Below are positions 138 through 44,215 of a stretch of 64,000 nucleotides of DNA, in pieces. The DNA comes from an uncultured virus (IMG/VR IMGVR_UViG_3300028025_000094) (taxonomy: Duplodnaviria > Heunggongvirae > Uroviricota > Caudoviricetes): IMG/VR virus record IMGVR_UViG_3300028025_000094. One strand, 5' to 3'. Numbering within the stretch: position 1 is the stretch's first letter; every line of letters begins with the position of its first letter. Both the position numbers and the translations under genes were made by a program. Under the pieces are notes generated by a model. That model did no database searches. It was not told where the DNA came from and worked only from the letters and a program-made list of their open reading frames with translations.

Positions 138-3100
138 TTGTCACAGAAAACCAGATCGGAACTTAGGATAAGATTCCAAACAGGAGATATACCAACCCAA
201 GAGGATTTTAAAGATGTATTTGATAGCTTCTATAATATCTTAGAGGATCCACTTAATACAGCGGTTGGCCCAACAGGTCCTCAGGGACCATTAGGTGCAA
301 CTGGACCAACAGGGGCTACTGGGGAAACAGGTGCTACAGGAGAAGCTGGTGCTACTGGTGCTACCGGTGCTACCGGAGAAATTGGCGATACTGGTGCTAC
401 TGGTGCAACTGGTCCAGCTGGTACACCCGGTGCTACTGGAGGGCAAGGAATAGCCGGTGCTACCGGTGCTACCGGTGCTACTGGACCTGCTGGTGCTACC
501 GGTGCTACAGGTAGTCCAGGGGTTGCTGGTAGTAATGGAAATGACGGAACCTCTGGTACTTCTGGGGAAACGGGAACCTCTGGTACTTCCGGAGCTGATG
601 GTACTTCTGGACAAGACGGAACATCTGGAGCTGATGGTACTTCTGGTACTTCTGGTCAGGATGGTACTTCTGGACAGGACGGTACTTCCGGTGAATCTGG
701 AACATCTGGAGAATCTGGTACCTCCGGTGAATCTGGTACTTCTGGCGAATCTGGTACTTCTGGTCAGGATGGTACTTCTGGTGTTGATGGTACTTCTGGT
801 CAGGATGGCACTTCAGGAATTGACGGAACAAGTGGTATTGATGGTACTTCTGGAATAGACGGAACAAGTGGCACCGACGGAACAAGTGGCACCGACGGAA
901 CAAGTGGTACTGATGGTACTTCTGGAATAGATGGAACAAGTGGTACTGATGGTACTTCTGGAATAGACGGAACAAGTGGTACAGATGGTACTTCAGGAAT
1001 AGATGGTACCTCGGGCATTGATGGTACTTCTGGAACAAGTGGTATTGATGGTACTTCTGGAACAAGTGGTATTGATGGTACTTCGGGAATAGACGGAACA
1101 AGTGGTATTGATGGTACTTCAGGAATAGACGGAACAAGTGGTACAGATGGTACTTCAGGAATAGATGGTACTTCTGGAATAGACGGAACAAGTGGTACTG
1201 ACGGAACAAGCGGTACGGATGGAACTTCGGGAATAGACGGAACAAGTGGTACGGATGGTACTTCAGGAATAGATGGAACAAGTGGCACCGACGGAACAAG
1301 TGGTACTGATGGTACTTCTGGTGTTGATGGTACTTCTGGTCAGGATGGCACTTCAGGAATTGACGGAACAAGTGGTATTGATGGTACTTCTGGAACAGAT
1401 GGAACAAGTGGTACTGACGGAACAAGTGGTATTGATGGTACTTCAGGAACAGATGGAACAAGTGGCACCGACGGAACAAGCGGTGAATCAGGTACTTCTG
1501 GAATAGATGGTACCTCGGGCATTGATGGTACTTCAGGCATTGACGGAACAAGTGGTACAGATGGAACCTCTGGTGAATCTGGAACTTCTGGAATAGATGG
1601 AACAAGTGGTACTGACGGTACTTCAGGAACAGATGGTACTTCTGGTGAATCTGGAACTTCGGGAATAGATGGAACAAGTGGTACAGACGGAACTTCAGGA
1701 ACAGACGGAACATCTGGTGAATCTGGTACTTCTGGTGAATCCGGTACTTCTGGTGAATCAGGAACATCTGGTGAATCTGGTACTTCTGGTGAATCAGGAA
1801 CTTCCGGTGAATCAGGAACTTCTGGTGAATCTGGAACTTCTGGAACAGATGGAACAAGCGGTACGGACGGAACTTCTGGAATAGATGGAACAAGTGGTAC
1901 AGATGGAACATCTGGGCAAGACGGTACATCAGGAATTTCTGGTGTAGATGGAATAGATGGAACAAGTGGAACTTCAGGAACAGACGGAACATCCGGCGAA
2001 TCTGGAACCTCGGGAACAGATGGAACAAGTGGAACTTCAGGAACAGACGGTACTTCAGGAATAGACGGAACAAGTGGTACGGATGGTACCTCTGGTGAAT
2101 CAGGCACTTCTGGTGAATCTGGAACTTCTGGAACAGATGGAACATCAGGTACTGATGGAACTTCTGGTGAATCTGGAACCTCAGGAACGGATGGAACAAG
2201 TGGTACAGATGGCACTTCGGGAATAGACGGAACATCTGGTACAGACGGAACATCTGGTGAATCAGGCACTTCTGGTGAATCCGGAACTTCTGGAACAGAT
2301 GGAACAAGTGGTACTGATGGAACTTCTGGAGAATCTGGAACCTCAGGAACGGACGGAACAAGTGGTACAGATGGAACATCTGGTGAATCAGGTACTTCAG
2401 GAACAGATGGTACTTCAGGTACTGATGGAACAAGTGGTGAATCGGGTACTTCAGGAACAGACGGAACTTCAGGAACAGACGGAACATCTGGTGAATCAGG
2501 CACTTCTGGTGAATCTGGAACTTCTGGAATAGACGGAACAAGTGGTACAGATGGTACTTCAGGTACTGATGGAACTTCTGGTGAATCTGGAACTTCAGGA
2601 ACAGATGGAACATCTGGTGAATCAGGTACTTCAGGAACAGATGGTACTTCTGGAACAGATGGAACAAGTGGTACAGATGGTACTTCTGGTGAATCTGGAA
2701 CTTCAGGAATAGACGGAACAAGTGGTACAGATGGTACTTCAGGAACAGACGGAACGTCTGGTGAATCGGGTACTTCTGGTGAATCTGGAACCTCGGGAAC
2801 AGACGGAACTTCGGGAACGGATGGTACTTCTGGTGAATCAGGTACTTCTGGAACAGACGGAACTTCGGGTACTGATGGTACTTCTGGTGAATCTGGAACT
2901 TCTGGAACAGACGGAACAAGTGGTACCGATGGAACTTCTGGTGAATCTGGAACTTCTGGAACAGACGGAACAAGTGGTACAGATGGTACTTCTGGTGAAT
3001 CTGGAACCTCAGGGACAGATGGATCAAGTGGAACTTCAGGAACAGACGGAACAAGTGGTACCGATGGTACTTCTGGTGAATCTGGAACTTCTGGAACAGA

Positions 3101-6100
3101 CGGAACAAGTGGTACTGATGGAACAAGCGGAACCTCAGGTACAGACGGTACTTCTGGTACTTCTGGTGAATCTGGAACTTCAGGAACAGATGGAACAAGT
3201 GGTACAGATGGTACTTCAGGAACGGACGGAACAAGTGGTACAGATGGCTCATCAGGAACCTCAGGAACTTCAGGAACAGACGGAACATCAGGTACCGATG
3301 GTACTTCTGGTGAATCTGGAACTTCAGGAACAGACGGAACATCAGGTACAGACGGAACCTCTGGTGAATCCGGAACCTCAGGTACAGACGGTACCTCTGG
3401 TACAGACGGAACAAGTGGTACAGATGGAACTTCTGGAGAATCCGGAACCTCAGGAACGGACGGAACAAGTGGTACTGATGGTACTTCTGGTGAATCTGGA
3501 ACCTCGGGTACAGACGGTACTTCAGGTGAATCTGGAACCTCCGGGCAGGACGGTACATCAGGAATTTCGGGAGTAGACGGAATAGACGGAACCTCAGGAA
3601 CGAGCGGAACATCTGGAACAGGTGGTACTTCTGGTACTGATGGAACTTCTGGTACCGATGGAACCTCCGGTGAATCCGGTACTTCGGGTACTGACGGAAC
3701 CTCAGGTACAGATGGAACATCAGGAACAGATGGAACAAGTGGTACTTCAGGAACAGATGGAACTTCCGGTACAGATGGAACATCAGGAACAGATGGAACA
3801 AGTGGTACTTCAGGAACAGATGGAACTTCCGGTACAGACGGAACAAGTGGAACAGACGGAACTTCTGGAACCTCAGGAACAGACGGAACATCAGGTACCG
3901 ATGGTACTTCTGGTGAATCTGGAACTTCAGGAACAGACGGAACATCAGGAACATCTGGTACAGATGGAACAAGTGGAACTTCTGGAACTTCAGGTACAGA
4001 CGGAACAAGTGGAACAGACGGAACTTCAGGAACCTCAGGAACAAGTGGTACAGATGGCTCATCAGGAACTTCAGGTACATCAGGAACAGACGGAACAAGC
4101 GGTACTTCAGGATCTAGCGGACAGGATGGTCAAGATGGCCAATCATCAAACATTTATGAGTATCAAGCTAAAACCGGAGTAACCTCAGGTAATCCTGGAT
4201 CCGGGCATATAATTTGGAACAATTCTACTCAGATAAATTCAACAAGTATTAATGTCAATATGACTACACAGTCTGGTATTGATATTGATTTATTTTTATC
4301 ACTAATAGTACAAGGTCAACAATTTGTTATACAGGATCAAAATATTTCTGAAAATTATCAAGTGTGGGAAGTTAATGGAACTCCTACACAAACATTAGTT
4401 AGCGGAAGCGAATATTATTGGACCCTTCCAGTTTCCTTAATAAGTTCATTAGGAACTGGGCAGTCAAATTTTTCTAATAACCAGGAGGTAATATTAGCTT
4501 TATTTGCTGCTTCTGGAACATCAGGAACGGCAGGAACATCGGGCACAGCAGGAACGAGTGGAACCTCGGGTACGGACGGAACAAGTGGTACGGATGGCTC
4601 ATCAGGAACTTCAGGTACATCAGGAACAGACGGAACTTCAGGAACAGACGGAACCTCGGGTACAGATGGTACTTCTGGTGAATCTGGAACTTCCGGAACA
4701 GATGGAACAGGTGGTACTTCAGGAACAGATGGTACATCGGGTGAATCTGGGACCTCAGGAACAGACGGTACTTCTGGTGAATCTGGAACCTCGGGAACAG
4801 ACGGAACAAGTGGAACATCAGGAACAGACGGTAGCTCTGGAACCTCGGGTGAATCTGGAACTTCTGGTGCTGCTGGAGGTAACGGAGCATTAACTTCAAC
4901 CTGGTCTAAGTCTGGTTCAAACCCACCAAGCACCGGTCAATTTTACTGGACTGGAGGTAGCGGAGATCTAGTAATAGATTCAGCTGATATTAATAATACC
5001 AGTTGGAGTGCTTTCTTAAGTAGTGCTGCATTACCAATTATTATACAAGTTATTGAAGTTGGTAATCCAACCAGTATCGGTGTAATAAAATACACATACA
5101 GAAACGCAGCTGGTACTTATTTCACGTTCAGTAGCGGAACTTTTTTAAATGGTGGAACAGCACCTTCAGGAAATTGCTTTATATCATTCCAATCGCAAGC
5201 AACTGACGGAACATCTGGAACATCTGGAACAGATGGTAGCTCAGGAACATCCGGTACAGACGGTACTTCAGGAACCTCTGGAACAGACGGAACAAGTGGA
5301 ACCTCTGGTACTGATGGTACTTCTGGTACAGACGGATCTTCAGGAACATCTGGTACTTCTGGCGAATCTGGAACCTCAGGTACAGATGGAACAAGCGGAA
5401 CCTCTGGAACAGACGGAACCTCTGGAACAGACGGTACTTCTGGTGAATCCGGAACCTCAGGTACAGACGGTACTTCTGGTGAATCCGGAACATCAGGAAC
5501 AGACGGAACAAGTGGTACAGACGGTACTTCTGGTACAGATGGAACTTCAGGTGAATCTGGAACATCAGGAACAGACGGAACAAGTGGTACTTCTGGTACA
5601 AGCGGAACCTCAGGAACTGACGGAACATCAGGTAGCTCTGGAACATCAGGAACAGACGGAACAAGCGGAACCTCAGGATCTTCAGGTAGCACTGGTACTT
5701 CTGGAACCTCAGGATCTTCAGGTAGCGCTGGTACTTCTGGATCTTCCGGATCTTCGGGATCTACTGGTACATCAGGATCTACTGGTACATCAGGAACTGC
5801 AGGAACATCCGGAAGTGCAGGTAGCTCTGGATCAAGTGGGGTTTCTGGATCAACAGGTACTTCAGGAAGTGCAGGAACGTCAGGGGTCAGCGGACTTAGT
5901 GGTCTTGATGGTACTTCAGGAACTGCTGGATCTTCAGGATCAACAGGTTCTTCTGGTACTTCAGGAAGTGCAGGATCTTCAGGAACAAGTGGAACTTCAG
6001 GTTCTTCCGGATCTACTGGTACATCAGGAACTGCAGGAACTTCTGGAAGTGCAGGTAGCTCTGGATCATCGGGATCTACGGGTACTTCAGGAACATCAGG

Positions 6101-7571
6101 AAGTGCGGGTACCTCGGGATCTACGGGAACTTCTGGATCCTCGGGTAGCACAGGAACTTCAGGATCTGCTGGAACATCAGGTTCTTCAGGATCATCAGGA
6201 TCTTCAGGATCTGCAGGAACAAGTGGAACTTCAGGATCCTCTGGACAAACTGGTGCTGCTGGTTCTTCTGGTAGCTCTGGATCAACAGGATCTTCTGGAT
6301 CAACAGGATCTTCAGGGACATCAGGAAGTGCAGGTACATCAGGAACAAGCGGAACTACAGGAACATCAGGTTCTGCTGGTAGTTCTGGATCCTCTGGATC
6401 TACAGGTTCTTCCGGAACAAGTGGAACTTCTGGATCAAGCGGAACTTCTGGATCTGCTGGTAGTTCAGGATCTTCAGGATCAGCAGGTTCTTCAGGAACA
6501 AGTGGAACTTCTGGATCTGCAGGAACAAGTGGAACATCAGGATCTTCCGGATCTTCTGGTAGTTCAGGATCTTCAGGATCAGCAGGTTCTTCTGGAACTG
6601 GGGGTTCTTCTGGAACAAGTGGAACTTCAGGTTCCTCTGGATCAACAGGTTCTTCCGGTAGTTCAGGACAAACAGGTGCTGCAGGTAGTTCGGGATCTTC
6701 AGGATCAGCAGGTTCTTCTGGAACAAGCGGAACCTCGGGATCTTCTGGATCTTCCGGATCTTCGGGATCAACAGGTTCTTCCGGAACATCAGGAACTTCT
6801 GGATCTGCAGGAACAAGTGGAACATCAGGATCTTCAGGTAGCTCTGGACAAACAGGTGCTGCAGGTAGTTCTGGATCTTCGGGATCAACAGGTTCTTCTG
6901 GAACAAGCGGAACATCAGGTTCTTCTGGATCTGCTGGTTCTTCTGGATCTGCTGGTTCTTCTGGATCTACAGGATCCTCGGGATCAACAGGAACCTCAGG
7001 AACATCAGTTTCGGTTTCCGGTACGAATAATACTTATGTTAAGTTTACCTCCGGAACCACAGTAGGTAACTCAGCATTCTCAATCAGAGATAACACAACA
7101 AACTCTGCATTGAATCTAGGTACGCAAGCAAACTCTTCTAGATATGGTGAGATTGCTCAAGCAGTAACTACTATTTCGTCATCCAATGACATGCAACATG
7201 GTAAGGTGATGGCTAAATTTGCGATTGCTTCTGCTTCCACTCAGACACTAAACCTAAACACGTCAACCGATAGAATTACAGTTCCAAACAACTCTGTTGT
7301 TGCATTCACTGTTAATCTGGTAATTCAAGACGATACCAACCAAAACGTAGACTATAGAAGATACGAAGGTGCGATTAGAAATATAGGAGGAACAACCTCA
7401 ATTGTTGGAGTGGTAACAGAGATCACAATCACACAAGACAGTTCATTATTCACATGTGCTGTTACTGCAGATAACACCAACGATGCACTTTCAATAGCAG
7501 TCACAAACTCTGGTTCTAACACAATCAAATGTTTAGGTACTGTTAACATCTATCAGATAACAAAGGGATAA
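138..7571 (+). CDS. Giant collagen-like (Gly-X-Y) Ser/Thr-rich fibre protein, 2477 aa
   Basis: TTG start. N-terminal [19 protein letters not shown] motif, then GPT/GAT and GTS-GTD/GES/GID repeats, two globular inserts (~4140-4510, ~4890-5200), GSS repeats and a beta-rich C-terminal domain. No S74 domain. Confidence 0.85.
267..7008 (+). repeat. Degenerate 9/18-bp coding tandem repeats (Gly-X-Y)
   Basis: Units such as ggaacttca/ggtacttct/ggaacagac with heavy synonymous variation; exact 88-bp duplicate at 768-855 and 1308-1395. Confidence 0.95.
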
Positions 7572-7628: not shown

Positions 7629-10600
7629 ATGAGTAATTATAAACTTAAAAATTTTGATGGGATTGTATTTGATACCAACGGTAAAGGTATCGGACTACCT
7701 CAGATAGACAACATTAGTAACGCAACCACCAGCGGCATACCTGCTGGTAGTTTAATGTATGCTATTGCTCAAAATTCAATCTACTATTTTAATGGCACTG
7801 CATGGGTAAGCGGACAAGGAACCTCTGGGACATCTGGTGTTAATGGATCATCAGGATCGTCCGGAAGTACTGGATCATCAGGTTCGAGTGGCACGTCGGG
7901 ATCTTCAGGAAGTACTGGATCATCAGGATCTTCGGGAAGCACTGGTACAAGCGGATCTTCTGGATCGTCAGGAAGTACAGGATCAAGCGGAAGTTCAGGA
8001 AGTACTGGATCAAGTGGATCATCCGGATCGTCAGGATCATCAGGATCTACTGGTATATCAGGTACCTCAGGAACTGGGGGAAGCTCTGGATCATCGGGAT
8101 CATCTGGTCTTTCAATGGTGTTTAAGGGCACATACTCAGCCGGTACGACATACGCAGCTAATGATGTAGTTTATCATAACGGAAGTTCATACGTGTCGCT
8201 ACTGGGTGGTAACGTGGGTAATACACCAAGTTCTTCTCCTAGTCAATGGAGTCTAGCTGCACTGGCAGGAACTAACGGAAGCTCAGGATCATCAGGATCT
8301 TCAGGAAGCTCTGGTTCTTCGGGACAAAGTGGTGCTGCTGGTTCTTCTGGATCATCAGGTTCTTCTGGTCAAAACGGAGCTGCTGGATCTTCAGGATCAT
8401 CGGGTCAAACAGGTGCTGCTGGATCTTCGGGTAGCTCAGGATCATCAGGACAAACTGGTGGTTCTGGATCGTCCGGATCTAGCGGAACTTCAGGAACTGG
8501 GGGATCTTCAGGAACCTCTGGTGCTAATGGAGTTGCTGGATCATCAGGATCCTCTGGTAGTTCTGGCCAAACCGGCGGAGCAGGATCCTCCGGAAGTTCT
8601 GGTTCTTCTGGTCAAACTGGAGGAGCAGGATCATCAGGAACATCAGGAGCTGGGGTTTCAATAGCCAACAATGTTGATAATTACGTTCTAACAGCAACTG
8701 GATCTGGAATTAATGGAGAGTCTAGATTAACATTTGATGGAGCAACACTTACAGTTAATCCTACTGGGAGTTCAACAGCAACTACTCTTGCTTTTGGTAG
8801 TGGAGACAATGCCACGATTGCTTCTTATTATTCTATGACTTTTCAAGTCAATAGTTCTAACACTCAAAGTGGCAGAACATACAATTGGAACAAAGCAGGA
8901 ACTGGGTACGGAAACGGATCAAATCTAATGTCTCTTGCTGCTGACACGAATGTTCTTGCATTGAACGGAAGTGTAAATTCTAGAGCATATTCTATACCAG
9001 GTCAATCTGGAGCAGGAACCTATCAATATGGATTAACGAATTCGCCCACATGGAACGTAAATCAGGGTAGTTATACTAATAATAACGCAACAGCACCAGA
9101 CGGATCAACAACAGCCGCTACCTATACACTGAGCACAGCATCTTGGGATTTATACCAGACTATTGCTGCTACATCAGGTGTTGTTTATAGAGTAGGCGTA
9201 TGGGTTAAACTTGGAACTGCCACAAATTTTTGTATTGTTCTAAATAACACCCAAGCATGGAATACAGTAAGTGGAAAGGCATTTAATTCTAGCGATGGAC
9301 TAAGCACGTCAAAATGGACCCACGTCTCTCTTACTTTCACCGGTCCAAGTACTGGAAATATAAATCTTCACATCGGGGGTCACTCTGAAAGCATCACACA
9401 ACAAACAGCAGGTACTGTTTTTGTTTGGAACTGGGAGGTTATAACAGGGGCTTCAACCTGGGTTAGTAACATCGATGATGAGATAAGATTACCAAGCAGC
9501 AGTATATTTACATCAAGGGGATTACTAGGAATCGGAACAACTTCTCCCTCAGTAAGACTTCAGGTGGTCGGTGACAATTCAACCGAAGGCCAATTATATG
9601 TTGGTAATACCGATGTAACATATTCAGCAGGAATAAATTTTACAACATCTGGTACAAACAGAGGATTTGTAGGATGGAGGCATACGAACTCTGGATCCCC
9701 ATATTCATTAACAGGTATCCATTTATTTAATACAGATAACTCTAATATTGTATTTGGTACTAATGGTGCTGTCAGAGCAGTAATTAATCTTAATGGTAAT
9801 CTTGGGGTAGGTACTACCACACCGAGCTACAGATTAGAAGTAGTAACCGGGGGAGCACTTGCACAAAGATTACAAAGTTCTAATTCTACCGTAGGAAATC
9901 CAATTATAGATATCTATGATGCAGGAAGGGTACAGGAGACTGTAATTTCTTCCACTGATGGAACAACAACAGGAACTTATATAGCTTCCTATTCTAATCA
10001 TCCCCTATTATTCGGTACAAACGCGGGGTCTTCCCCGACTGCTAAGGTGAGAATAGAGGCAGATCAAGTTAGCACCCCAATATCAACTATGAAAATAGGA
10101 CCAGGGGGAATCCTTTGGGGTGGTAATAATAGCGGTAAAGAAATTAATTCGTGCCAGATCTCTGCTGGATATCACCTGGCCAACTCAATGAACTTTGTCG
10201 GTATGTCTTCAGGAACTAGTTCCACTGATAGACGCATGGACTTCTGGGTTGAAGGAGGAGCATTCTTTAGAGGTACACTCACGGCAACTGGTGATATAGT
10301 GGCTTATGGTTCCACTTCAGATATCAGACTTAAGAAAAATATTATATTAATAAACGGAGCTCTAGACACCCTAATGAAAGTCAATGGCTATACTTTCCAA
10401 TGGAATGAAAAAGCACCAGTGGAAAAAAGAGACAAGACGGAATATGGTGTTATAGCTCAGGAAGTTGAAGCAGCAGGTCTAGATCTTCTTATCAGAGATT
10501 ATATTAGACCCGTAAATGAAACTGGTGGAGATGATACCCCTCCCGAAGTTTGGAAATCTGTTCAGTATGAAAAATTCGTTCCTATCTTAATTGAAGCAAT

Positions 10601-18267: not shown

Positions 18268-18303
18268 ATTAGTATGATGTATTTATAATTAAGTTAAAAC
18301 AAA

Positions 18304-18846: not shown

Positions 18847-18868
18847 TTAAACACACAAAAAAAAACGT

Positions 18869-20739: not shown

Positions 20740-20757
20740 AATATTAATCAAAAGAAT

Positions 20758-23065: not shown

Positions 23066-23088
23066 AATCTTTGTCCCCAGAATAATTT

Positions 23089-23115: not shown

Positions 23116-23135
23116 TAAATAACATTAAAAAGAAT

Positions 23136-34288: not shown

Positions 34289-34289
34289 A

Positions 34290-34760
34290 ATGGCAACACT
34301 ATTAGCATCAACAGTAAATGGGACATTAACAGCATCAACGAGTATAACTTCACCAAAGTTATTACAAACATATTCAACGCAATCGTTTAAAGAATATATT
34401 GGAAGTGCATCAATTCCTAGTTCTTATAATAATGCAACAAATTATGTTGATCTATTTGCTAATACAGGGGTTCATGAAAGAATGCTTGGGTATGTTTCTT
34501 GGACTGTATACCAATCTCAGATACACACAGGTTCTTTTATTTTTCAATTATCTGAATATGGATTAAGTACTTATACTTTACAGAATAGCGGGTATTGGTC
34601 AGTGTCCAGACATAACCCTTCTTACGGTACAAATTATTTAAGATTTACAAACACGGTTGGTACTGTATGGGGCGACGGAAATTTTCAGTTTGTTGTTAGA
34701 ACAACTGGTCTAGGTGGGCACACATTTGTTTCTTCATATTTAACAGAAAGAGTAAGATAG
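34290..34760 (+). CDS. Small beta-rich tail-associated paralog 2
   Basis: MATLLAST...YLRFTN...SSYLTERVR. Confidence 0.7.
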   Translation: MATLLASTVNGTLTASTSITSPKLLQTYSTQSFKEYIGSASIPSSYNNATNYVDLFANTGVHERMLGYVSWTVYQSQIHTGSFIFQLSEYGLSTYTLQNSGYWSVSRHNPSYGTNYLRFTNTVGTVWGDGNFQFVVRTTGLGGHTFVSSYLTERVR

Positions 34761-34761
34761 T

Positions 34762-35208
34762 ATGGCAACACTAATAGGGACAACGTCTACAACAATATCA
34801 GCAACACAAATAACTTCTCCTTTGACGTATATGGATACTGGAAATGGAATGATTGAATATACAGGTTCAGTTTTTCTGAATAATAACGCAACGGTAGATA
34901 TTTTAACAAATAATAGTGGATATGCTAGAATGGTAGGTCTTGGATATTTTACCGGAATAATGACCTCAACATCTTGGACATTTGGGCATTTTACTTTTCA
35001 GTGCTCCAGATACGAAACATCATATACGAATATATTACAATCTGACTGGGGAGGGTATTCAATATCTAATTATCAAAATCCAAGTAATGTTGATCAAAAT
35101 TCCGTGAGATTCACAAACACTGCAGGAGACAGCGGAACTTTTTATTTTAATTTTTTGGTGCAAAATCATGTCACGGAAACATCAAACAATCTAACAAGAA
35201 TTAAATAA
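34762..35208 (+). CDS. Small beta-rich tail-associated paralog 3
   Basis: MATLIGTT...SVRFTN...SNNLTRIK. Confidence 0.7.
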   Translation: MATLIGTTSTTISATQITSPLTYMDTGNGMIEYTGSVFLNNNATVDILTNNSGYARMVGLGYFTGIMTSTSWTFGHFTFQCSRYETSYTNILQSDWGGYSISNYQNPSNVDQNSVRFTNTAGDSGTFYFNFLVQNHVTETSNNLTRIK

Positions 35209-35216
35209 TTATAATT

Positions 35217-35474
35217 ATGACACATCCTTTAGACGACGGCTCTGAACTAATAAATCCAATGGACGGAACTCCTTATAGTGAAATTCAAAGATTTGGTTTT
35301 TATACAGGTTTACAACAGGTTTTTGATACACAATATCAAAGAGATCGTAAAAATGAATATCCTCCTATCGAAGAATACATCGATGGAGTTGTAAAAGGAG
35401 ACCAGTCTCAGATTGACGAATATATAAACAAATGCTTAGCTGTAAAAGCCAAGTATCCAAAACCAAATAGTTAA
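35217..35474 (+). CDS. Putative tail-fibre assembly/accessory protein
   Basis: YQRDRKNEYPPIEEY...CLAVKAKYPKP motif, common next to phage fibre genes. Confidence 0.55.
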   Translation: MTHPLDDGSELINPMDGTPYSEIQRFGFYTGLQQVFDTQYQRDRKNEYPPIEEYIDGVVKGDQSQIDEYINKCLAVKAKYPKPNS

Positions 35475-37486
35475 TGGGAAATACTAGAGATACCGGATAT
35501 TTAAGAGACCTTGTCACGTATGATGGTAGTGACAATGTTACATTTCCAGCAAATGTGAGCCTAGTTGCTCCAGCAGGAAGTGACAACAGTACTAAGGTAC
35601 CTAGTACAGCCTGGGTAAGAACCTATGTGTCAGGTGTTGCTAGTTTAAGTACCTCAGGAACTTCTGGAGCAAACGGATCTTCTGGTTCTTCTGGTCAAAC
35701 TGGAGCAGCAGGTTCTTCTGGTTCTTCTGGTCAAACAGGTGCTGCAGGTTCTTCTGGTTCTTCCGGTTCTTCTGGTCAAACAGGTGCTGCAGGTTCTTCT
35801 GGTTCTTCCGGTTCTTCTGGTCAAACTGGAGCAGCAGGTTCTTCTGGTTCATCTGGTCAAACCGGGGGTGCAGGTTCTTCTGGTTCTTCCGGTTCTTCTG
35901 GTCAAACCGGTGCTGCTGGTTCTTCTGGTTCTTCTGGTCAAACCGGGGGTGCAGGTTCTTCTGGTTCATCTGGTCAAACTGGGGGTGCAGGTTCTTCTGG
36001 ATCTTCCGGTTCTTCTGGTCAAACCGGCGGTGCAGGATCAAGCGGTACCTCAGGAACTTCTCCTAGCGCTGCAGCATACGTTGCTAAAGCTGGGGATACA
36101 ATGACTGGACTACTACAGCTGTCCGGTCAAGCTACAATCAACACAACTACCCCGGGTGTAGGAAACTACGGATTACATTTCACTGGCCAAACTACAGCAG
36201 ATTATGCTGCGGGTATAACATGGAACGGAGGTACAGGAACTACTGGTGCTCAAGCTGGAATCTATGTACAGGGATCAGGTAGCTATGGTACTAAAATGTA
36301 CATTGCTACCACCGATTCTTATGCGGCGGGATCTAAAACTGCTATATCAATAGATCATACGGGTCTTGTTAATTTTATTAGACAAGTACCAACATATGCG
36401 GGAACTTCCCTAGTTTATAATAGTGGTACTTGGGGTATAAGTATTTCTGGTAATGCTGCTACTGCAACTACAGCAACAAACTCATCTCAATTAAATGGCA
36501 TATCATCTACCCAGATATTCAATAACATGGGTAATATCCATGGTACTTATACTGATTTTAATAGTGTAGGTAATTTTGGGGTTAGATATTTACAAGGTAG
36601 TACAAATGGTCCTGGAACAGGTGCTAGTCAATATTATGGTTTTACATTAGGTTTAGGTAATGAGTATCCATTAGATGGAGCAGGATCATATGCCACTCAG
36701 TTTTATTGGAACAGAACATCTACAGGGGGTAACCCATATGTTTCAGTAAGATTTAAAGAAGGTAATTCGTGGGGGGCTTGGAGTAAGATATATGCTGGAT
36801 ATGCTGATAGTGCAGGAACTGCAACAGATAGTTCTAAACTTCCATTAGCTGGAGGTACTATGTCTGGACCAATAAGAAGAAGCGGACACTCTACTACTTT
36901 TTTCGAAGGTTCATATAATAATGTCGGCGGTAATTCAGCTTATTCAAATCCAATTTACACAATTGGTTCCTCATATAATCCCTCAGATAGTTCTTTAGGA
37001 GTCATGTATGGTATTGGCTATGCCCACCCAAACTTTTGGGGTGCAGGTAAAACTAGTAGTTGGGGTTTATATTGTGCTAATGGAGGTGTTATAAACGTAA
37101 CACTTGGGGAGGGGGCTACATCTATTTGGGCACAAAATGATATAGTAGCTTACTCCGATATTAGGGTAAAAGATAATATAGAGTTAGTAACAAATGCTAT
37201 TGAAAAAATCCAAGCTATTCGAGGTGTAACCTTTACCAGAAAGGATGCAGCATTAGAAGACAAAGATAAAAGGCACGCTGGTGTAATTGCTCAGGAGGTA
37301 TTAAAGGTAATGCCTGAAGTAGTTACAGGCACAGAGAAAGATATGTATTCAGTAGCTTATGGTAACATGGCAGCATTGTTTATAGAAGCAATTAAGGAAC
37401 AACAGGCACAGATCGAGGATCAAGGATCGGAAATCCGCAGATTAAAATCCTTAATAGGATCTCTTCTTGGAAAGAATTATAAATAA
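35474..37486 (+). CDS. Tail fibre 7 (different N-terminus) with S74 chaperone
   Basis: DNSTKVPSTAWV; GSS/GQT repeats; YSDIRVKDN...AGVIAQEVL. Confidence 0.85.
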   Translation: MGNTRDTGYLRDLVTYDGSDNVTFPANVSLVAPAGSDNSTKVPSTAWVRTYVSGVASLSTSGTSGANGSSGSSGQTGAAGSSGSSGQTGAAGSSGSSGSSGQTGAAGSSGSSGSSGQTGAAGSSGSSGQTGGAGSSGSSGSSGQTGAAGSSGSSGQTGGAGSSGSSGQTGGAGSSGSSGSSGQTGGAGSSGTSGTSPSAAAYVAKAGDTMTGLLQLSGQATINTTTPGVGNYGLHFTGQTTADYAAGITWNGGTGTTGAQAGIYVQGSGSYGTKMYIATTDSYAAGSKTAISIDHTGLVNFIRQVPTYAGTSLVYNSGTWGISISGNAATATTATNSSQLNGISSTQIFNNMGNIHGTYTDFNSVGNFGVRYLQGSTNGPGTGASQYYGFTLGLGNEYPLDGAGSYATQFYWNRTSTGGNPYVSVRFKEGNSWGAWSKIYAGYADSAGTATDSSKLPLAGGTMSGPIRRSGHSTTFFEGSYNNVGGNSAYSNPIYTIGSSYNPSDSSLGVMYGIGYAHPNFWGAGKTSSWGLYCANGGVINVTLGEGATSIWAQNDIVAYSDIRVKDNIELVTNAIEKIQAIRGVTFTRKDAALEDKDKRHAGVIAQEVLKVMPEVVTGTEKDMYSVAYGNMAALFIEAIKEQQAQIEDQGSEIRRLKSLIGSLLGKNYK

Positions 37487-37509
37487 TTTCTTAAAACCCA
37501 CTTTTTTTT

Positions 37510-37536
37510 GAAAATTCTTCATGTTCTACTCTATAA
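37510..37536 (+). promoter_or_regulatory. Putative ECF-like promoter GAAAA-N15-TCTATAA
   Basis: Same spacing as 23089 and 59489; implies the true start codon is near 37542. Confidence 0.5.
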
Positions 37537-37541
37537 TGAAC

Positions 37542-40500
37542 ATGGTAAAGAAAAAATTGCTCTTCGTCGCCCCACACCTCTCTACTGGGGGACTCCCACA
37601 ATATCTTTTTAAAAAGATCGAAACACTGATCAATGATTATGAGATTCATGTCATTGAGTGGGATAATCATACCGGGGGTAGATTGGTGGTTCAAAGAAAT
37701 AGAATAGTGAACATCATTCCTCCCGAAAGATTTTATACACTAGGAAAGAACAAGAAAGAAATAGTGGATTTGATCTCAAGGATCGAACCGGATTTCATTC
37801 ATATCGAGGAAATGCCTGAATATTTCATGCCTTATGATATAGCTAAAGAAATCTATGTCACAGACAGAAAATATAAGATTTTTGAAACATCTCACGATTC
37901 AAGTTTCAATCCTGACAATAAAAAGTTCTTTCCTGATAAATTATTGCTTGTAAGTAACTACCAAATGGAAATGTTAAAGTCATTGGACATTCCAATGGAA
38001 CTAGCAGAGTACCCGATTGAGTATAAAGAAAGACCTGCCAGAGAACAAGCCTTAGCAGAACTTGGAATGGACCCGGAATACAAACATGTTATCAATGTTG
38101 GGCTATTTACTGCTAGAAAGAATCAGGCAGAGATTTTTGAGTATGCCAGGCAGATGACTGATTATAAGATCAAGTTTCACTTCATTGGTAATCAAGCAGA
38201 CAATTTTAAATTCTACTGGGAACCTCTCATGAACAATAAACCAGAAAATTGTGTTTATTGGGGAGAGCGCAGTGACGTTCATAAATTCTACGAAGCAGCA
38301 GATCTTTTCTTGTTTACTTCAAGAGGATTTAATTCAGATAAAGAAACATCTCCTCTAGTAATTAGAGAAGCTATTGGACACCAAGTTCCTTCCCTAATTT
38401 ACAATCTGAGTGTTTATCAAAACATGTATGACAAGTATGATAACATTCAGTATTTAAATAACGATGGTGACAATATAGACAAGATCTTATCTGTCTTAGG
38501 TATTGTCAAAGAGGAGAAGTTAATCGAAGAAATAGAATTTGAAGAAGTAATAGATTCTGATGACAAAGATGAATTTAAAAAAATCTCTATCATCGATGTT
38601 TATGCCACAACAGAAGATAAGCTTCAGCTTCTTAGAGATTGTATTAAGAGCGTTAGAAAACTAGGACACCCTATAATGTGTGTTTCGCATTGCACATTGC
38701 CAGAGGATATAGTTAAGAGTCTAGATTATCATTTATTTGATGCAGATAATTCTTTTAATAATAATCACGTACATTCTTTTAAAACCCAGGATAATGTAAC
38801 TGTGAATGCTAATATTAGAAGATCTCACGAATTTCCTATTATCAGATCAATGAGGTTGGCAATGAATGCGGCTAAAAAATTAGGATTTGATTATTTCTAT
38901 TTAACCGAATTTGATCACGATTACTCAGATAATGGTATCAAACAAATAAAGGACCTTGAATCCCGTATGTTATCCGAGGGAAGAGATATAACATTCTTTT
39001 ATCCATCTAGTGCAGTCTTTGGTGATATTGTAGGACAGTATTATGATACATGCTTCTTCTTCGGTAAACTAGACTATTTTATTGAAAAATTTGAAAGCTA
39101 TTTTCCACAGACTCTTGAAGAATATAATTCAAGATTTGCAATCAGATTCCCTAATTGCTTGGAGCATTTCTTTTATGAACTTTTTAAAGGAGAGAATGTA
39201 TTATTAATCCCCGATTATGTTAAAGGTTATTTTAGTGATAGCCTAATAAACATTTCGTCTTATAGAGATACTGACTATAAAATTTTAATAGGTAGCGATG
39301 ATAATCCATATCTCGTTGTTACCAATAGTAACATAACGGATTATGAGTATGAAATCTATCAGGATAATAAAATGATAGATTCTTATATCATAAACGGTAG
39401 CTTTAAATTAACTAAGATCGAAAAAGAAGGAAAGATCACTATCAAGATATACAGAGATGGTCTTTTATCAGAAACACAGGAAATAGAACATAGAGAATCT
39501 AAAAGAGAAGAATATCTAGCAGATGGTTCAATCTCCCTGCCAACTAATAATATAGAAACAAAAAATATGGAATTAAAAGATCTTGGACTAAAGATGTCAT
39601 TACCAATTTCGGATACTTATATCCCCGAAGAAAATAAATTTGTATTCAAATACCTGGAAGCAACCACAGAGAGATACTCAGTTGCAGTTAAGGATATAGA
39701 TTCTAGAGCTTGTATTTACAAGTCAGAGCTAGATCCTTTACCTGCTGGACATTCATGGTGGGTAATACCTCTTCCTAAGATAGTTATAGATTTTGCTAAC
39801 GATCCAACGTTTGGCGGGTTCTTAATTGAATTTAGAAACACAAGGGGCGAATTGGTAGAAACAAGAGAAAGAAGATTAAAAGAAATTCCATTTAAAAAGC
39901 TTGTTATGGATATCTCAGATACCGAGCCTATCTTTATGAACTATGAGGAATTCTTTGTACAAAAGGTTTATGATTCTGTCGATCTTGATAATTGTAAAAC
40001 TGTTTTAGATATTGGAGCTAATGTTGGTCTTTGGAGTAAATATATTATTTCTCGTAATGCTAAAAATGTATATTCGTTCGAGCCTAATAAAAAAGCTATA
40101 GAACACCTAAAGAAAACACTATCAAACGATAGGGGAACAACAGTAATAGAAAAAGCGGTCTATAAAGAAAGAGATACCCTTAATTTTTATATCGACGATA
40201 CTAATAGTTTAACATCATCACTACTTTCTAATTCTGGACATAAGCCATCCTATGAAGTTGATGCTATCACACTTGAAGATGCAATCAATCTAACGGGAGA
40301 AAGTAAAATAGATCTTGTTAAGATTGATATAGAAGGAGCTGAATTTGATATTATAGAAACAACCACTCAGGAAGTTTTTGATCGCATTAATTGTTTCCTG
40401 ATCGAATATCACGATTTCTATTTCGATAACGGAATGGCAAAGGTTGATGCACTAGAAAATAAATTAAAAGAAGCAGGATACAGAGTACAAAGACTTTCTG

Positions 40501-41285
40501 ATTCTGCTGCAGCTACCGCACCTCTAAAAATAATCTACGCAACTAGAGTTAAGAAATCATATTATGTTCCCAAAGGAGGTATTATCTCTTCAAGAAATCT
40601 CTATGACTTTAGTGATAATTTCACATGGGATGAAATGAACGCAGGGAGACAAGATGGATACAACCAATTAATGAAAGAAATGCATTTTACTTTCGATAAT
40701 TACACAACCGGAAACATATACGAAAGACTTGGATGCACGGTAGAGAAAGGAGATATCTTGGTAGACGTTGGTGCTAATATAGGTGCATTTGCAAATTATG
40801 CATATCACAAAGGAGCAGAAAAAATCTATTGCTTTGAACCGGCTGATATAGCATTCGAATGCCTTGTTAGAAATAAACCAGAAGGTGCAGAGACTTTTAA
40901 ATCTGCAGTGGGAAATCGATACGGCATGGTTAAGATAACTTTACCAAGTGCAGACGACACTATGAGTGGATCTTCATTTATCGATAAAGGTGTTTCTAAC
41001 TACTGCCCAATAATTCCTATCGACTTCTTATTTAGCCAAGGTGTATTGGAAAAAATAGATTTTCTAAAGATTGATTGCGAAGGAGCAGAGCTTGATGTTA
41101 TTGATGGCATCTCCGAAGAAAATCTCGCAAAGATCTCTAAGATAGCATTAGAATTTCACGCAAATTATTTAACAGAGGAAGATTCGGAAAAAATCATACA
41201 AAGATTGACGAATGCCGGATTTAAATCATTTCAATTATTCTTAGGAAATGGGGAACTTAGAATTTATAACTTCTGGAGAGGTTAA
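37542..41285 (+). CDS. Multidomain GT4 glycosyltransferase + central domain + two FkbM-type methyltransferases
   Basis: PHLSTGG, NVGLFTARKNQ, ETSPLVIREA (GT-B); LDIGANVG/KIDIEGAE and VDVGANIG/KIDCEGAE. ORF track starts at 37521. Confidence 0.8.
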   Translation: MVKKKLLFVAPHLSTGGLPQYLFKKIETLINDYEIHVIEWDNHTGGRLVVQRNRIVNIIPPERFYTLGKNKKEIVDLISRIEPDFIHIEEMPEYFMPYDIAKEIYVTDRKYKIFETSHDSSFNPDNKKFFPDKLLLVSNYQMEMLKSLDIPMELAEYPIEYKERPAREQALAELGMDPEYKHVINVGLFTARKNQAEIFEYARQMTDYKIKFHFIGNQADNFKFYWEPLMNNKPENCVYWGERSDVHKFYEAADLFLFTSRGFNSDKETSPLVIREAIGHQVPSLIYNLSVYQNMYDKYDNIQYLNNDGDNIDKILSVLGIVKEEKLIEEIEFEEVIDSDDKDEFKKISIIDVYATTEDKLQLLRDCIKSVRKLGHPIMCVSHCTLPEDIVKSLDYHLFDADNSFNNNHVHSFKTQDNVTVNANIRRSHEFPIIRSMRLAMNAAKKLGFDYFYLTEFDHDYSDNGIKQIKDLESRMLSEGRDITFFYPSSAVFGDIVGQYYDTCFFFGKLDYFIEKFESYFPQTLEEYNSRFAIRFPNCLEHFFYELFKGENVLLIPDYVKGYFSDSLINISSYRDTDYKILIGSDDNPYLVVTNSNITDYEYEIYQDNKMIDSYIINGSFKLTKIEKEGKITIKIYRDGLLSETQEIEHRESKREEYLADGSISLPTNNIETKNMELKDLGLKMSLPISDTYIPEENKFVFKYLEATTERYSVAVKDIDSRACIYKSELDPLPAGHSWWVIPLPKIVIDFANDPTFGGFLIEFRNTRGELVETRERRLKEIPFKKLVMDISDTEPIFMNYEEFFVQKVYDSVDLDNCKTVLDIGANVGLWSKYIISRNAKNVYSFEPNKKAIEHLKKTLSNDRGTTVIEKAVYKERDTLNFYIDDTNSLTSSLLSNSGHKPSYEVDAITLEDAINLTGESKIDLVKIDIEGAEFDIIETTTQEVFDRINCFLIEYHDFYFDNGMAKVDALENKLKEAGYRVQRLSDSAAATAPLKIIYATRVKKSYYVPKGGIISSRNLYDFSDNFTWDEMNAGRQDGYNQLMKEMHFTFDNYTTGNIYERLGCTVEKGDILVDVGANIGAFANYAYHKGAEKIYCFEPADIAFECLVRNKPEGAETFKSAVGNRYGMVKITLPSADDTMSGSSFIDKGVSNYCPIIPIDFLFSQGVLEKIDFLKIDCEGAELDVIDGISEENLAKISKIALEFHANYLTEEDSEKIIQRLTNAGFKSFQLFLGNGELRIYNFWRG

Positions 41286-41286
41286 T

Positions 41287-42087
41287 ATGAATATAGTGAT
41301 ATATTCGGATAAGAACTATGAACATCAAGTAAAAAATTTCATTAGATCCCTCGCTTATGGAGGTATAGAAAACTATAGGGTTTTTTATTACGGCATAGGA
41401 TTTAATTCTTCAATTAAATCCGATAAGGTAGTAAACATATACTGGAGGAAAGATTCAAGAAATTTTGAATTTTATAAACCAGAGATTTGTCTGGATGCCC
41501 TTAATTATGTTAAAGAAAATATATTTTATTTTGATGCTGATATAATTCTTTCGAAGAGATTTTATAAAATGCCGGTTGAGCTTGGAAAATCATATCCAAC
41601 TTTCTCTAAAGGACCGATAGAATATCCATTTACCTTCTGGAGGGATTCTAAAGGAACAACAACTTTTGATGAGACAAAATTAATGAATTATCTAGGGGTG
41701 AAGGAAAGATTAATGCATTATGTGATGGCATGTTTCTTTACCTATGATGAAAACTCTAGGGATTTTTTAGAAGAGTATATGTCATTTTGTAAAAATGAAT
41801 ATCTACTTAAGCAGTCGCAATCTATGTATGCTTTTACCGATGAAACAATAGCTAATGTTCTTCTTTGGAAAAGAGGAATAAGCGATAGCTACGGAAGGTA
41901 CTTTGTTAACACACACAAATTTAGTACATTCAAATTGTGTGAGGAAAATGAGGATATAAAGGATTTATTTATTGACGGAAATCATTATGAGCAATGCGAG
42001 GATTCAAGTCAGGTTTACTTTTATCACGCAACTAAGATTAAAGAAGAGAATGAAAAAATTTTAAAATACATCAATGAGAATAGTTAA
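41287..42087 (+). CDS. Putative DxD (GT-A-like) nucleotide-sugar transferase
   Basis: FYKPEIC, YFDADIIL, FTDETIANVLLW; ATG 41287 directly follows the upstream stop. Confidence 0.55.
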   Translation: MNIVIYSDKNYEHQVKNFIRSLAYGGIENYRVFYYGIGFNSSIKSDKVVNIYWRKDSRNFEFYKPEICLDALNYVKENIFYFDADIILSKRFYKMPVELGKSYPTFSKGPIEYPFTFWRDSKGTTTFDETKLMNYLGVKERLMHYVMACFFTYDENSRDFLEEYMSFCKNEYLLKQSQSMYAFTDETIANVLLWKRGISDSYGRYFVNTHKFSTFKLCEENEDIKDLFIDGNHYEQCEDSSQVYFYHATKIKEENEKILKYINENS

Positions 42088-44215
42088 TATTACCCCTGGT
42101 CTATTACCCATTCCTCCTAACGGATGGGGAGCGGTAGAAAAAATTATATGGGAAAATCATCAGAATTTATTGGAGATTGGACACGATGCTAAGATACTTT
42201 ATACCGATGAGGTTAATAAAGGAGATTTTGATGTTGTTCATGTGCATGTCGCAAACCTTGCTAATATTTTAGCAGGGAGAGGTATACCTTATATCTTTAC
42301 GTTCCACGATCACCATGCGTTTTTGTATGGGAAAGATTCTGGTGTATTTAAGGAAAATATGAAGGCTATTGAAAGTTCTTTAGTAACCTTGGTTCCTGCT
42401 AAATTTTTAGTTGATTACTTTGATCATCCAAACGTCCAGTATTTTAGTCATGGTGTCAATCCTGACGTTTTCAAAAACAATATAGTAGATTACGACCCAC
42501 CGGTTTTTCATAAATTATTATGTGTTGCAAATAACGGATGGGCCAATGATCCATCAGCAGATAGGAAAGGATTTTCCCTAGCAATCCAAGCAGCTATGGA
42601 ATTAGATCTTCCTATAACCATAGCAGGCCCGGAGAATAATAAAAAGTACTTCGAACAAAATCCTTCAGAATATTATAATCTTTCCATTCTTTATAATCTG
42701 ACGGAAGAAGAACTAATTAAGACATATAGAGAACATACTATTTTTTTACACCCGTCCATTCTAGAAGCTGGACATCCTAATTTAACCTTACTTGAAGCAA
42801 TGTCGTGTGGACTTCCTGTAGTTGGAACATACGAGGAGGATAATGAACTACCTGGACTATATAAAATAGAAAGAGATGTTAAATTACTTAAGGATGGAAT
42901 AAAAGATGTTATAAGCAATTTTAAAACATATAGAGGGAATGCCATCGAGACATCTAAGAATCTTTCTTGGAAAAATCGAACCATAGAGCTTCTTAAGATC
43001 TATAAAAAATACACAGAAAGAAATATGAGAGATACTCTAATTAATGCATACGAGAATACCCCTATAAGATCAGTATCTCCCAAAAAACAAAAGAATGATG
43101 TTAGATATAATTTCATCGGAGGTCCTTTTGTTGAAATAGTAGGATCTATAGAAAATAAATACAAGGTAGAATTTATTGATAAAAAGCAGGGAGTAATAGT
43201 TCACACTTCCAATATTGGAAATAATATGTGGACCAGATGTTCAAGAAAATATTGCACTGATTGGGAAATAGTAATAACACCAGAAAACAAAATAGAAGAA
43301 CCCACAGTTATTAAATTTAATCCGGCTGGACAAAGAGTTTATGTCTCTTTAGATTCTAAATCCCTCGGAGACACCTTAGCTTGGTTTCCAATGGTAGATG
43401 AATTTAGAAAGAAGTGGGATTGCAAAGTTATCTGCTCTACATTCAGAAACGAATTTTTTAGAAACACTTATCCAGAAATAGAATTTGTAAACCCAGGAAC
43501 ATCCGTAGATAATATTTATGCGATGTTTAATATTGGATGGTATTATTTTGAGAATGGAACAATGGATCTATCTAAAGTACCTAGTGATTTCAGAATGATG
43601 CCTCTACAAAAAACTGCATCGGACGTTCTTGGATTAGATTACAAGGAGGTTTTACCTAAATTGGATAAATCAAAGGTTCAAAGGCAGATAGAAGGAAAAT
43701 ATGTTTGTATAGCACCACATGCTTCTGCTTTAGCAAAATATTGGAACAGACCTGGTGGATGGCAAAAAGTAATTGACTTTTTAAATGAGAAGGGTTACAA
43801 AGTAGTTTATATCAGTCAAGAACCTATGGATGGAGCATGGCACGATTCTAAACTAGGAGGAACTTTAAAAAATGTGATTAATAAATCAGGAGATCTTCCT
43901 TTAAGTGATAGGTTCGCAGATCTTTGTTATGCAGATTACTTTATTGGAGTAGGAAGTGGTTTAAGCTGGTTAGCTTGGGCCTCCGGAGTAAAAACAATGA
44001 TGATCTCAGGATTTAGCAAGCCCTTTACTGAATTCGAAACAAACTGTGATCGTTTATTTAACGAAAGTGTTTGTAATGGATGCTTTAATACACACAAATT
44101 AGATCCGGGTGATTGGAGATGGTGTCCAGTACATAAAGGCACAGAAAGAGAATTTGAGTGTACGAAAACCATCACAGAGCATCAAATAATGGACATTCTC
44201 GACCAGCGCCTTTAA
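42074..44215 (+). CDS. GT4 glycosyltransferase fused to a TibC/Aah-like protein O-heptosyltransferase
   Basis: IPPNGWGAVEK...EAGHPNLTLLEAMSCG (GT4); SLGDTLAWFP, FIGVGSGLSWLAW, CNGC...WCPVHKGTEREFEC iron-finger. Confidence 0.8.
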   Translation: MRIVNITPGLLPIPPNGWGAVEKIIWENHQNLLEIGHDAKILYTDEVNKGDFDVVHVHVANLANILAGRGIPYIFTFHDHHAFLYGKDSGVFKENMKAIESSLVTLVPAKFLVDYFDHPNVQYFSHGVNPDVFKNNIVDYDPPVFHKLLCVANNGWANDPSADRKGFSLAIQAAMELDLPITIAGPENNKKYFEQNPSEYYNLSILYNLTEEELIKTYREHTIFLHPSILEAGHPNLTLLEAMSCGLPVVGTYEEDNELPGLYKIERDVKLLKDGIKDVISNFKTYRGNAIETSKNLSWKNRTIELLKIYKKYTERNMRDTLINAYENTPIRSVSPKKQKNDVRYNFIGGPFVEIVGSIENKYKVEFIDKKQGVIVHTSNIGNNMWTRCSRKYCTDWEIVITPENKIEEPTVIKFNPAGQRVYVSLDSKSLGDTLAWFPMVDEFRKKWDCKVICSTFRNEFFRNTYPEIEFVNPGTSVDNIYAMFNIGWYYFENGTMDLSKVPSDFRMMPLQKTASDVLGLDYKEVLPKLDKSKVQRQIEGKYVCIAPHASALAKYWNRPGGWQKVIDFLNEKGYKVVYISQEPMDGAWHDSKLGGTLKNVINKSGDLPLSDRFADLCYADYFIGVGSGLSWLAWASGVKTMMISGFSKPFTEFETNCDRLFNESVCNGCFNTHKLDPGDWRWCPVHKGTEREFECTKTITEHQIMDILDQRL

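Follow-up and report, generated by a model that had tools for sequence, protein, structure and literature searches.

A TibC-like glycosylation cassette beside Ser/Thr-rich, nearly proline-free collagen-like fibers in an uncultured tailed phage: a candidate system for fiber O-glycosylation

A stretch of 64,000 nucleotides from an uncultured virus of the Caudoviricetes (IMG/VR record IMGVR_UViG_3300028025_000094), hereafter the window, carries an array of eight collagen-like fiber genes followed by a cassette of three glycosyltransferase (GT) genes at 37521-44215, the last of which contains a domain resembling TibC of Escherichia coli. As judged from sequence, the cassette is probably a phage protein O-glycosylation system whose acceptor would be the Gly-Ser/Thr-Ser/Thr repeats of the phage's own fibers. 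This reading is carried by the domains of the cassette enzymes, their conserved catalytic residues, and the recurrent neighborhood of the same enzyme clade with such repeats, all of which were observed. Our confidence is lower for heptose as the sugar and for an effect on the stability of the fiber.

Fibers were defined by a run of at least six Gly-X-Y triplets, which yielded eight open reading frames (ORFs; lengths in amino acids [aa]) on the plus strand:
138-7571, plus strand: giant collagen-like protein, 2477 aa; 673 triplets in three runs; no Peptidase_S74 domain.
7629-10673, plus strand: fiber paralogue, 1014 aa; 76 triplets in two GSS-rich runs; shared N-terminal 60-aa domain, variable distal part; Peptidase_S74.
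10727-13315, plus strand: fiber paralogue, 862 aa; 79 triplets; Peptidase_S74.
13366-17202, plus strand: fiber paralogue, 1278 aa; 149 triplets in four runs; Peptidase_S74.
23693-26638, plus strand: fiber paralogue, 981 aa; 107 triplets; Peptidase_S74.
27163-30444, plus strand: fiber paralogue, 1093 aa; 83 triplets; Peptidase_S74.
30465-33812, plus strand: fiber paralogue, 1115 aa; 81 triplets; Peptidase_S74.
35474-37486, plus strand: fiber with a different N terminus, 670 aa; one run of 45 triplets; Peptidase_S74; stops 35 bases before the GT genes.

Together, the eight ORFs contain 1293 triplets, and the longest run has 431. The initial annotation had described Gly-X-Y runs dominated by Ser and Thr and nearly free of Pro in an array ending directly before glycosylation genes, and both statements were borne out. 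Among the 2586 X and Y positions, 1302 are Ser and 674 are Thr (1976 together), while Pro occurs only 8 times, always in the giant ORF 138-7571; the last fiber gene stops at 37486 and the first GT gene starts at 37521. Pfam Collagen (PF01391) matched all eight fibers, with E-values from 1.7e-270 to 4.6e-14, and the window contains 32 matches to a DNA pattern of six G-[S/T]-[S/T] codon triplets, versus 0 in 100 shuffles. A C-terminal intramolecular Peptidase_S74 chaperone (PF13884) was detected in seven of the fibers at 47-66 bits (cutoff, 22). Compared with known collagen repeats, the runs display the unbroken Gly-X-Y periodicity and lack the stabilizing Pro/Hyp or charge pairs in X and Y. Charged residues are almost missing from the runs of the seven smaller fibers; the giant ORF has Asp and Glu and hardly any Lys or Arg, and it further contains two embedded globular inserts and a non-collagen C-terminal part of about 190 aa.

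Six of the fibers have the N-terminal 60-residue domain in common, and four of those six also share an inter-collagen domain. Distal parts vary among the fibers with the shared N terminus, a pattern that would be expected of a set of alternative receptor-binding fibers. A three-copy fold of residues 40-250 of the fiber 35474-37486 scored 0.09 against a mark of 0.32; this fold is uncertain and bears neither way on a trimer or a triple helix. At residues 168-207 of the fibers 7629-10673 and 10727-13315, a match to CBM_5_12 was seen below threshold (19.7 and 21.6 bits, respectively, versus a cutoff of 26.2), and it sits between two collagen runs in both.

The cassette itself consists of the following parts:
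37521-41285, plus strand: multidomain enzyme, 1254 aa; GT4 (residues ~10-330), middle part (330-800), FkbM (~820-990 and 1060-1210).
41248-42087, plus strand: predicted GT-A fold DxD glycosyltransferase (GT6/GT8-like, retaining type), 279 aa; assigned from the predicted structure and invariant D96/D98.
42074-43081, plus strand: GT4 domain of a 713-aa fusion; in IMG/VR phages its own gene, immediately upstream of the TibC-like one.
43082-44215, plus strand: TibC/AAH-like domain (BAHT, TIGR04414), residues 337-710 of the 713-aa fusion.

The three genes overlap by 38 bases and then by 14 bases. A scan of positions 33000-47000 for promoters and terminators was not above shuffles (48 promoter-like sites versus 59.3 expected and 7 terminator-like sites versus 5.7), and the evidence for an operon is thus confined to these overlaps. 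The domains assigned initially, namely GT4 with two FkbM domains, a GT-A DxD transferase, and GT4 fused to a TIGR04414 domain, were all confirmed. In the first enzyme, FkbM was recognized over two stretches by TIGR01444 (177.6 bits; cutoff, 37.7) and by PF05050 (119.1 bits), and the GT4 domain is conserved in related phage cassettes. Its middle part gave weak leads in the Atlas, at 0.83 to a viral cluster with GT25 in 17% of its members. Compared with the separate GT4 genes of an IMG/VR phage (L017, see below), the GT4 domains of the window are 44-53% identical. For ORF 41248-42087, no Pfam, NCBIfam, or PHROG family was matched. An AF2 model built from 27 relatives reached a pLDDT of 91.6; its best Foldseek matches were GT6 GT-A transferases (E, ~4e-8; TM, 0.5-0.57), and the motif D96-x-D98 is invariant in the 27 relatives. 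The predicted GT-A fold and the two invariant Asp residues make DxD transferase the right label for this protein; since no Pfam model matches, its sequence does not place it in GT6 or GT8.

The domain at 43082-44215 is a BAHT as far as sequence and catalytic residues can tell. It scored 309.7 bits with TIGR04414 (curated cutoff, 200), covering positions 6-372 of the 374 in the profile, and it aligned with residues 21-384 of TibC (4RAP) at an E-value of 2.3e-56. Nine TibC residues matter by mutation or structure, according to the available part of the TibC study (PMC4358343). The catalytic base Asp110 corresponds to D433 in the window enzyme, and the donor-binding residues Lys230, Arg286, and Trp305 are identical (K555, R613, and W632), with S551 in place of Thr226. 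All four Cys residues of the iron finger (Cys339/342/358/370) are kept as C667/C670/C684/C696, and iron binding is predicted from them. All nine positions are invariant in 21 relatives. Heptose stereoselectivity is set by Pro300 in TibC and Ser294 in AAH (PMC4358343, available in part), and the window enzyme has G627 at this position. Other habits of BAHTs were not found for the window enzyme: it lacks an autotransporter partner and does not fall with the characterized enterobacterial enzymes in a tree.

Relatives of the TibC-like domain are rare among phage records, being present in only 4 of 50,697, which represent three distinct genomes. In IMG/VR, a single-protein scan with the TibC-like domain gave nothing, and an alignment-based scan yielded 440 candidate stretches, of which 368 were confirmed to encode a TibC-like relative; the best 80 were fetched. 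Upstream DNA of at least 4.5 kb was available at 35 loci, and 30 of these have Gly-X-Y runs on the same strand, ending 3.8-8.9 kb upstream of the enzyme. No such runs were seen at any of the 45 loci with less than 4.5 kb upstream, and a downstream run was present at just one of the 44 loci having at least 5 kb downstream. The content of Ser and Thr (S/T) was at least 50% at 25 of the 30 loci and 46-48% at one more (L063); the other four have collagen of a Gln/Tyr/Pro type. In L017, a 147-kb phage contig, a fiber (collagen plus Peptidase_S74) is followed by a 209-aa ORF, two GT4 genes (888 and 315 aa), the TibC-like gene (401 aa), three small ORFs, the tail sheath, and the tail tube. In the 735-kb phage LR756501, a 699-aa Gly-X-Y protein is divergent from a large GT4 gene and a GT4-TibC fusion that follows it, and several giant collagen-like frames occur elsewhere in the genome. 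TibC-like genes of the window's clade adjoin G-S/T-S/T proteins in phages of four different gene arrangements.

Microcystis phage Mel-JY01 (PP395634.1), recorded with a Microcystis host, encodes a 1227-aa GT4-methyltransferase-TibC fusion with GTS/GSS collagen-like frames on both sides. In its record (L001, 1-3052), two minus-strand coding sequences (1-651 and 739-2298) are annotated across a plus-strand collagen-like GTS/GSS frame of 1016 aa, which is matched by Pfam Collagen and runs off the start of the linear record. The second Gly-X-Y gene (9152-9986) lies downstream of the TibC fusion and is broken up into two frames that overlap, pointing to a frameshift or an error in sequencing.

The pairing of enzyme and repeat extends to bacteria, and this is the most telling part of the comparison. 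Among 78 loci taken from bacterial genomes and metagenome-assembled genomes, S/T-rich Gly-X-Y runs (threshold, 8 triplets) were found at 13, all of which belong to the 23 loci closest to the phage enzyme. Lipoproteins of 124-226 aa flank the TibC-like gene on chromosomes of several Gammaproteobacteria (Arenicellales, Acidiferrobacterales, and others); the Methylococcaceae have, as neighbors of this gene, proteins of 201-323 aa with a non-lipobox signal peptide. Both kinds of neighbor comprise a signal peptide, 10-29 GSS/GTS triplets, mostly also an acidic (poly-Asp/Glu) tail, and little else, and they lie 134-1200 bases from the TibC-like gene (L122 8528-12598; also L114, L115, L118-L121, L146, L110, L111, and L109). 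No family or function was found for these (GSS/GTS)n proteins. Methylococcaceae loci below the 8-triplet threshold still adjoin a signal-peptide protein rich in Ser, Thr, and Gly, and the enzyme-repeat pair also occurs in bacteria deposited under strain names, such as Methylomicrobium. The G-S/T-S/T repeat is the sole feature common to the phage fibers and the bacterial neighbor proteins.

A tree of 117 TibC-like domains was built by a quick method with midpoint rooting only. Left out were those 45 IMG/VR loci that have less than 4.5 kb upstream, because the repeat trait is unreadable there. A branch with 99% SH-aLRT support split the tree into two groups:
Classical BAHT group, 55 rows: Enterobacteriaceae, Burkholderiaceae, Oxalobacter, Acetobacter, Elusimicrobia, and Selenomonadaceae; S/T-rich Gly-X-Y runs nearby in 0 of 55.
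Phage and environmental group, 62 rows: the window, all phage loci, and environmental bacteria; S/T-rich Gly-X-Y runs nearby in 41 of 62.
As a control, six classical loci were inspected: four have an AIDA-repeat autotransporter directly downstream, one has a Hint-domain protein, and nothing emerged for the last. In Acetobacter pasteurianus, a member of the classical clade (L138 11185-14340), the protein downstream of the TibC-like gene is a 1051-aa Hint_2 protein, not an AIDA autotransporter.

From these data a mechanism can be proposed; its acceptor, its sugar, the sequence of its steps, and its effect on the fiber are all predictions. The TibC-like domain is a GT-B enzyme of the GT9 type that has a catalytic Asp and an iron finger. 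In the host cytoplasm it would move a first sugar to Ser of nascent fiber chains, using a nucleotide sugar as the donor (ADP-heptose is one candidate), and it may work as a ring oligomer in the manner of TibC, whose ring is a dodecamer joined through a beta-hairpin thumb. The two GT4 domains and the GT-A enzyme would then lengthen the glycan, and the FkbM domains would methylate it. Finally, the glycan coat could aid the folding or persistence of the proline-free repeats as rods, or it could shield them. The order and coupling of these steps are suggested by other proteins in which a TibC-like domain is fused to GT4, GT2, FkbM, or TylF/Methyltransf_24 domains, and the same fusions support the initial placing of transferases and methyltransferases in one pathway. 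They are further suggested by the report that TibC attaches its sugar to Ser and not to Thr and does so on short peptides in vitro (PMC4358343, available in part) and by the conversion of Ac-(Gly-Pro-Thr)10 from a random coil to a triple helix upon galactosylation (PMC11923368, available in part). Of the initial proposal that the TibC-like domain primes both Ser and Thr of the repeats, the link between enzyme and repeat is supported by their co-occurrence in phages and bacteria; Thr is doubtful as an acceptor, since the TibC described in the available part of that study uses Ser.

Several observations weigh against glycosylation of the fibers by the cassette. The evidence for it is genomic association throughout. 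TibC recognizes a folded beta-helix, not a collagen-like chain, in the available part of its description (PMC4358343), and no match to autotransporter or BAHT-target families was found in the window or in five fiber sequences (four whole and the C-terminal 590 aa of the giant protein). Four IMG/VR loci (L039, L048, L050, and L061) have the same GT4-GT4-TibC cassette next to a GYQGPQ-like collagen rich in Gln, Tyr, and Pro, with an S/T content of 5-40%, and phage LR756504 carries a TibC-like gene (35% identical) with no collagen match in its 636 kb. Co-occurrence, which holds when one starts from the enzyme clade, is weak in the reverse direction. When viral contigs were found via the G-[S/T]-[S/T] codon pattern (at least 65 distinct contigs, all confirmed to be S/T-rich, with up to 10 kb fetched on each side), a TibC-like gene lay near the Gly-X-Y runs in just 8 of 65 among the matches listed, so most such fibers exist without a TibC-like enzyme within 10 kb. 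Two further contigs among the 65 listed carry other parts of the cassette, and 8 of 65 greatly exceeds the base rate, which is at least 368 contigs in 2.9 million. In addition, essentially one change between the two clades suffices in the tree; the rows therefore do not count as independent events, and inherited gene order may account for part of the synteny among phages.

Heptose as the sugar found no support: ADP-heptose pathway genes were not found in the window, and neither gmhA nor rfaE domain II was found in five phage records that carry a TibC-like gene. These are Mel-JY01, LR756501, and three contigs from IMG/VR; one of the five is a complete genome, and one of the IMG/VR contigs is 93% complete. 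Given the Gly at the stereoselectivity position, heptose is no more than a candidate. The donor may come from the host.

Two other explanations deserve weighing, and we regard each as unlikely. In the first, the cassette remodels the host surface (the lipopolysaccharide [LPS] core, the O-chain, or another glycan), for example against superinfection, and adjoins the fibers through a shared variable host-recognition region. Glycosyltransferases in the fiber regions of pelagimyophages have been read in this way, as modifiers of the host O-chain, in the available part of PMC7029224, which also counts against fiber glycosylation. Polysaccharide synthesis commonly involves GT4, GT2, GT-A, and FkbM domains, most S/T-collagen phage contigs among the matches listed have no TibC-like gene nearby, and GT9 is the family of the LPS heptosyltransferases, weak matches to which (RfaQ and heptosyltransferases I and III) were indeed seen. 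However, those matches are far under their cutoffs (33 bits versus 467), whereas TIGR04414 is above its own, and the BAHT-specific N-terminal region is present along with the four-Cys iron finger. Moreover, the bacterial members of the clade have tiny (GSS)n lipoproteins as their neighbors instead of LPS genes, and a shared variable phage island cannot explain the pairing there.

In the second explanation, which we hold to be just as improbable, the TibC-like enzyme glycosylates other acceptors, such as the non-collagen parts of the fibers, other virion proteins, or host proteins. The non-collagen fiber parts are likewise Ser/Thr-rich, the collagen next to the enzyme is S/T-poor in some related phages, and the known TibC substrate is a beta-helix, a fold common in fibers (PMC4358343, available in part). 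Glycans of mycobacteriophages are located on the C termini of capsid and tail-tube proteins, as given in the available part of PMC12619734. Set against this is the G-S/T-S/T repeat, which alone is common to the phage fibers and the bacterial lipoprotein neighbors. A third explanation, that the enzymes act on phage DNA or a small molecule and that the neighborhood has no functional meaning, draws on the frequent modification of DNA by phage glycosyltransferases (PMC7029224 and PMC12619734, both available in part) and on the nucleotide-metabolism genes (ribonucleotide reductase [RNR]) that come after the cassette, but it is very improbable, as no known DNA glycosyltransferase family was matched by the window genes and the neighborhood recurs in phages and bacteria in differing orientations. 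O-glycosylation of the phage's own fiber repeats is the reading that we prefer.

Gene content around the array and the cassette is that of a large tailed phage, with all long ORFs of the window on the plus strand. The G+C content is 0.33-0.37 over most of the window and 0.39-0.49 over most stretches of fiber genes. Genes for RNR, T4-type topoisomerase II subunits, a family B polymerase fragment, UvdE, and DnaJ are present, and a scan for tRNA genes found none. The closest relatives of the window among the 50,697 phage genomes, which include uncultured phages of 634-642 kb, show a topoisomerase identity of only ~30%. Positions 54113-56439 encode UvdE, a UV-damage endonuclease, and a DnaJ that is full length, with its J, Cys-rich, and C-terminal domains; DnaJ is an unusual chaperone gene for a phage. 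The 385-aa ORF at 60562-61719 covers just positions 150-238 of the 453 in the family B DNA polymerase profile, and the polymerase may be split or strongly diverged.

The fiber array is not contiguous, since seven non-fiber genes (17236-23588) and five small ORFs lie in between. The seven genes belong to PHROG families without known function (phrog_1417, 1604, 14035, 1409, 1458, and 1401) and include one for a DUF401 membrane protein and the one for the 536-aa Methyltransf_24 protein listed below. Three of the small ORFs (158, 156, and 148 aa) stand in tandem at 33812-35208 between two fiber genes, with a mutual identity of 36-38%, and the ORFs 23136-23588 and 26687-27136 each precede a fiber gene. 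Such small ORFs beside fiber genes may be fiber assembly factors; no family was matched by those among the fibers. Three further genes are possible accessories of the cassette:
21455-23065, plus strand: Methyltransf_24 protein, 536 aa, inside the fiber array; a role is possible.
47653-48855, plus strand: 400-aa GT2 glycosyltransferase, encoded downstream of the RNR genes; possibly linked to the cassette.
49848-50837, plus strand: putative SDR nucleotide-sugar epimerase/dehydratase; top NCBIfam match GalE, 112 bits, under every cutoff.
The Methyltransf_24 family was also found fused to TibC-like domains in other metagenomic proteins. An assignment of the SDR protein as a heptose epimerase was rejected (TIGR02197, 76 bits; cutoff, 274.6).

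Extending the argument beyond the window, we tentatively put forward a broader idea, to which we give somewhat less than an even chance. A large and so far unrecognized sister clade of the autotransporter heptosyltransferases could be a dedicated G-S/T-S/T O-glycosyltransferase, with which hundreds of aquatic phages, by means of fused GT4, GT2, and methyltransferase modules, would coat proline-free fibers, so that the glycan, not hydroxyproline, would make the rods fold and persist; Gammaproteobacteria would use the same enzyme on (GSS)n lipoproteins, and many fiber-region glycosyltransferases regarded as LPS modifying would then be virion-glycosylation genes. If fiber glycosylation holds true, it would constitute a second, widespread form of phage virion glycosylation beside that of mycobacteriophages and a new substrate class for BAHT enzymes. 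Proline-free Gly-X-Y repeats are common in phage fibers, and the finding would suggest how they can make stable rods. Glycosyltransferases in host-recognition regions of freshwater and marine phages would also need a different annotation, and the finding would bear on fiber stability, receptor binding, and recognition of the phage particle. A literature search, in which subscription journals were mostly not covered, found no paper linking BAHT-like enzymes with phage collagen-like fibers.

Among known systems, the closest are TibC-TibA and AAH-AIDA-I of E. coli (BAHT; PDB 4RAP/4RB4; PMC4358343, available in part), which the window enzyme resembles in family score, catalytic Asp, iron-finger Cys residues, three of four donor-binding residues, and the N-terminal region. 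In both cases the enzyme gene adjoins that of a long, repetitive, Ser-rich protein. Unlike TibC and AAH, the window enzyme is phage borne, fused to GT4, and placed in a separate clade, and its neighbors are collagen-like fibers ((GSS)n lipoproteins in bacteria) instead of AIDA-type beta-helix autotransporters. It further differs in having Gly at the Pro300/Ser294 position and in the lack of ADP-heptose genes in the window and the five phage records.

Virion glycosylation in mycobacteriophages was reportedly described by Freeman et al. in 2023 in Cell Host Microbe. There, too, the phage is believed to O-glycosylate proteins of its own virion with glycosyltransferases that it encodes, with glycans on the C termini of capsid and tail-tube proteins (PMC12619734, available in part), whereas long Gly-X-Y repeats of fibers and a BAHT-like priming enzyme are proposed here. 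With the collagen-like tail fibers of phages and prophages that carry Peptidase_S74, the array shares the combination of a collagen run and a C-terminal S74 domain in seven of its eight fibers; it differs in its extreme S/T content, the eight-gene array, and the adjacent dedicated glycosylation cassette. BclA of Bacillus anthracis and vent-worm cuticle collagen have hydroxyproline-free Gly-X-Y repeats with O-glycans on Thr, and these repeats are Gly-Pro-Thr-like and Pro-rich, whereas Pro fills 8 of 2586 X and Y positions here and Ser dominates. To our knowledge, the enzymes that glycosylate BclA and vent-worm collagen are unrelated to BAHT. The likeness to these collagens is that glycosylation can make a triple helix form (PMC11923368, available in part).

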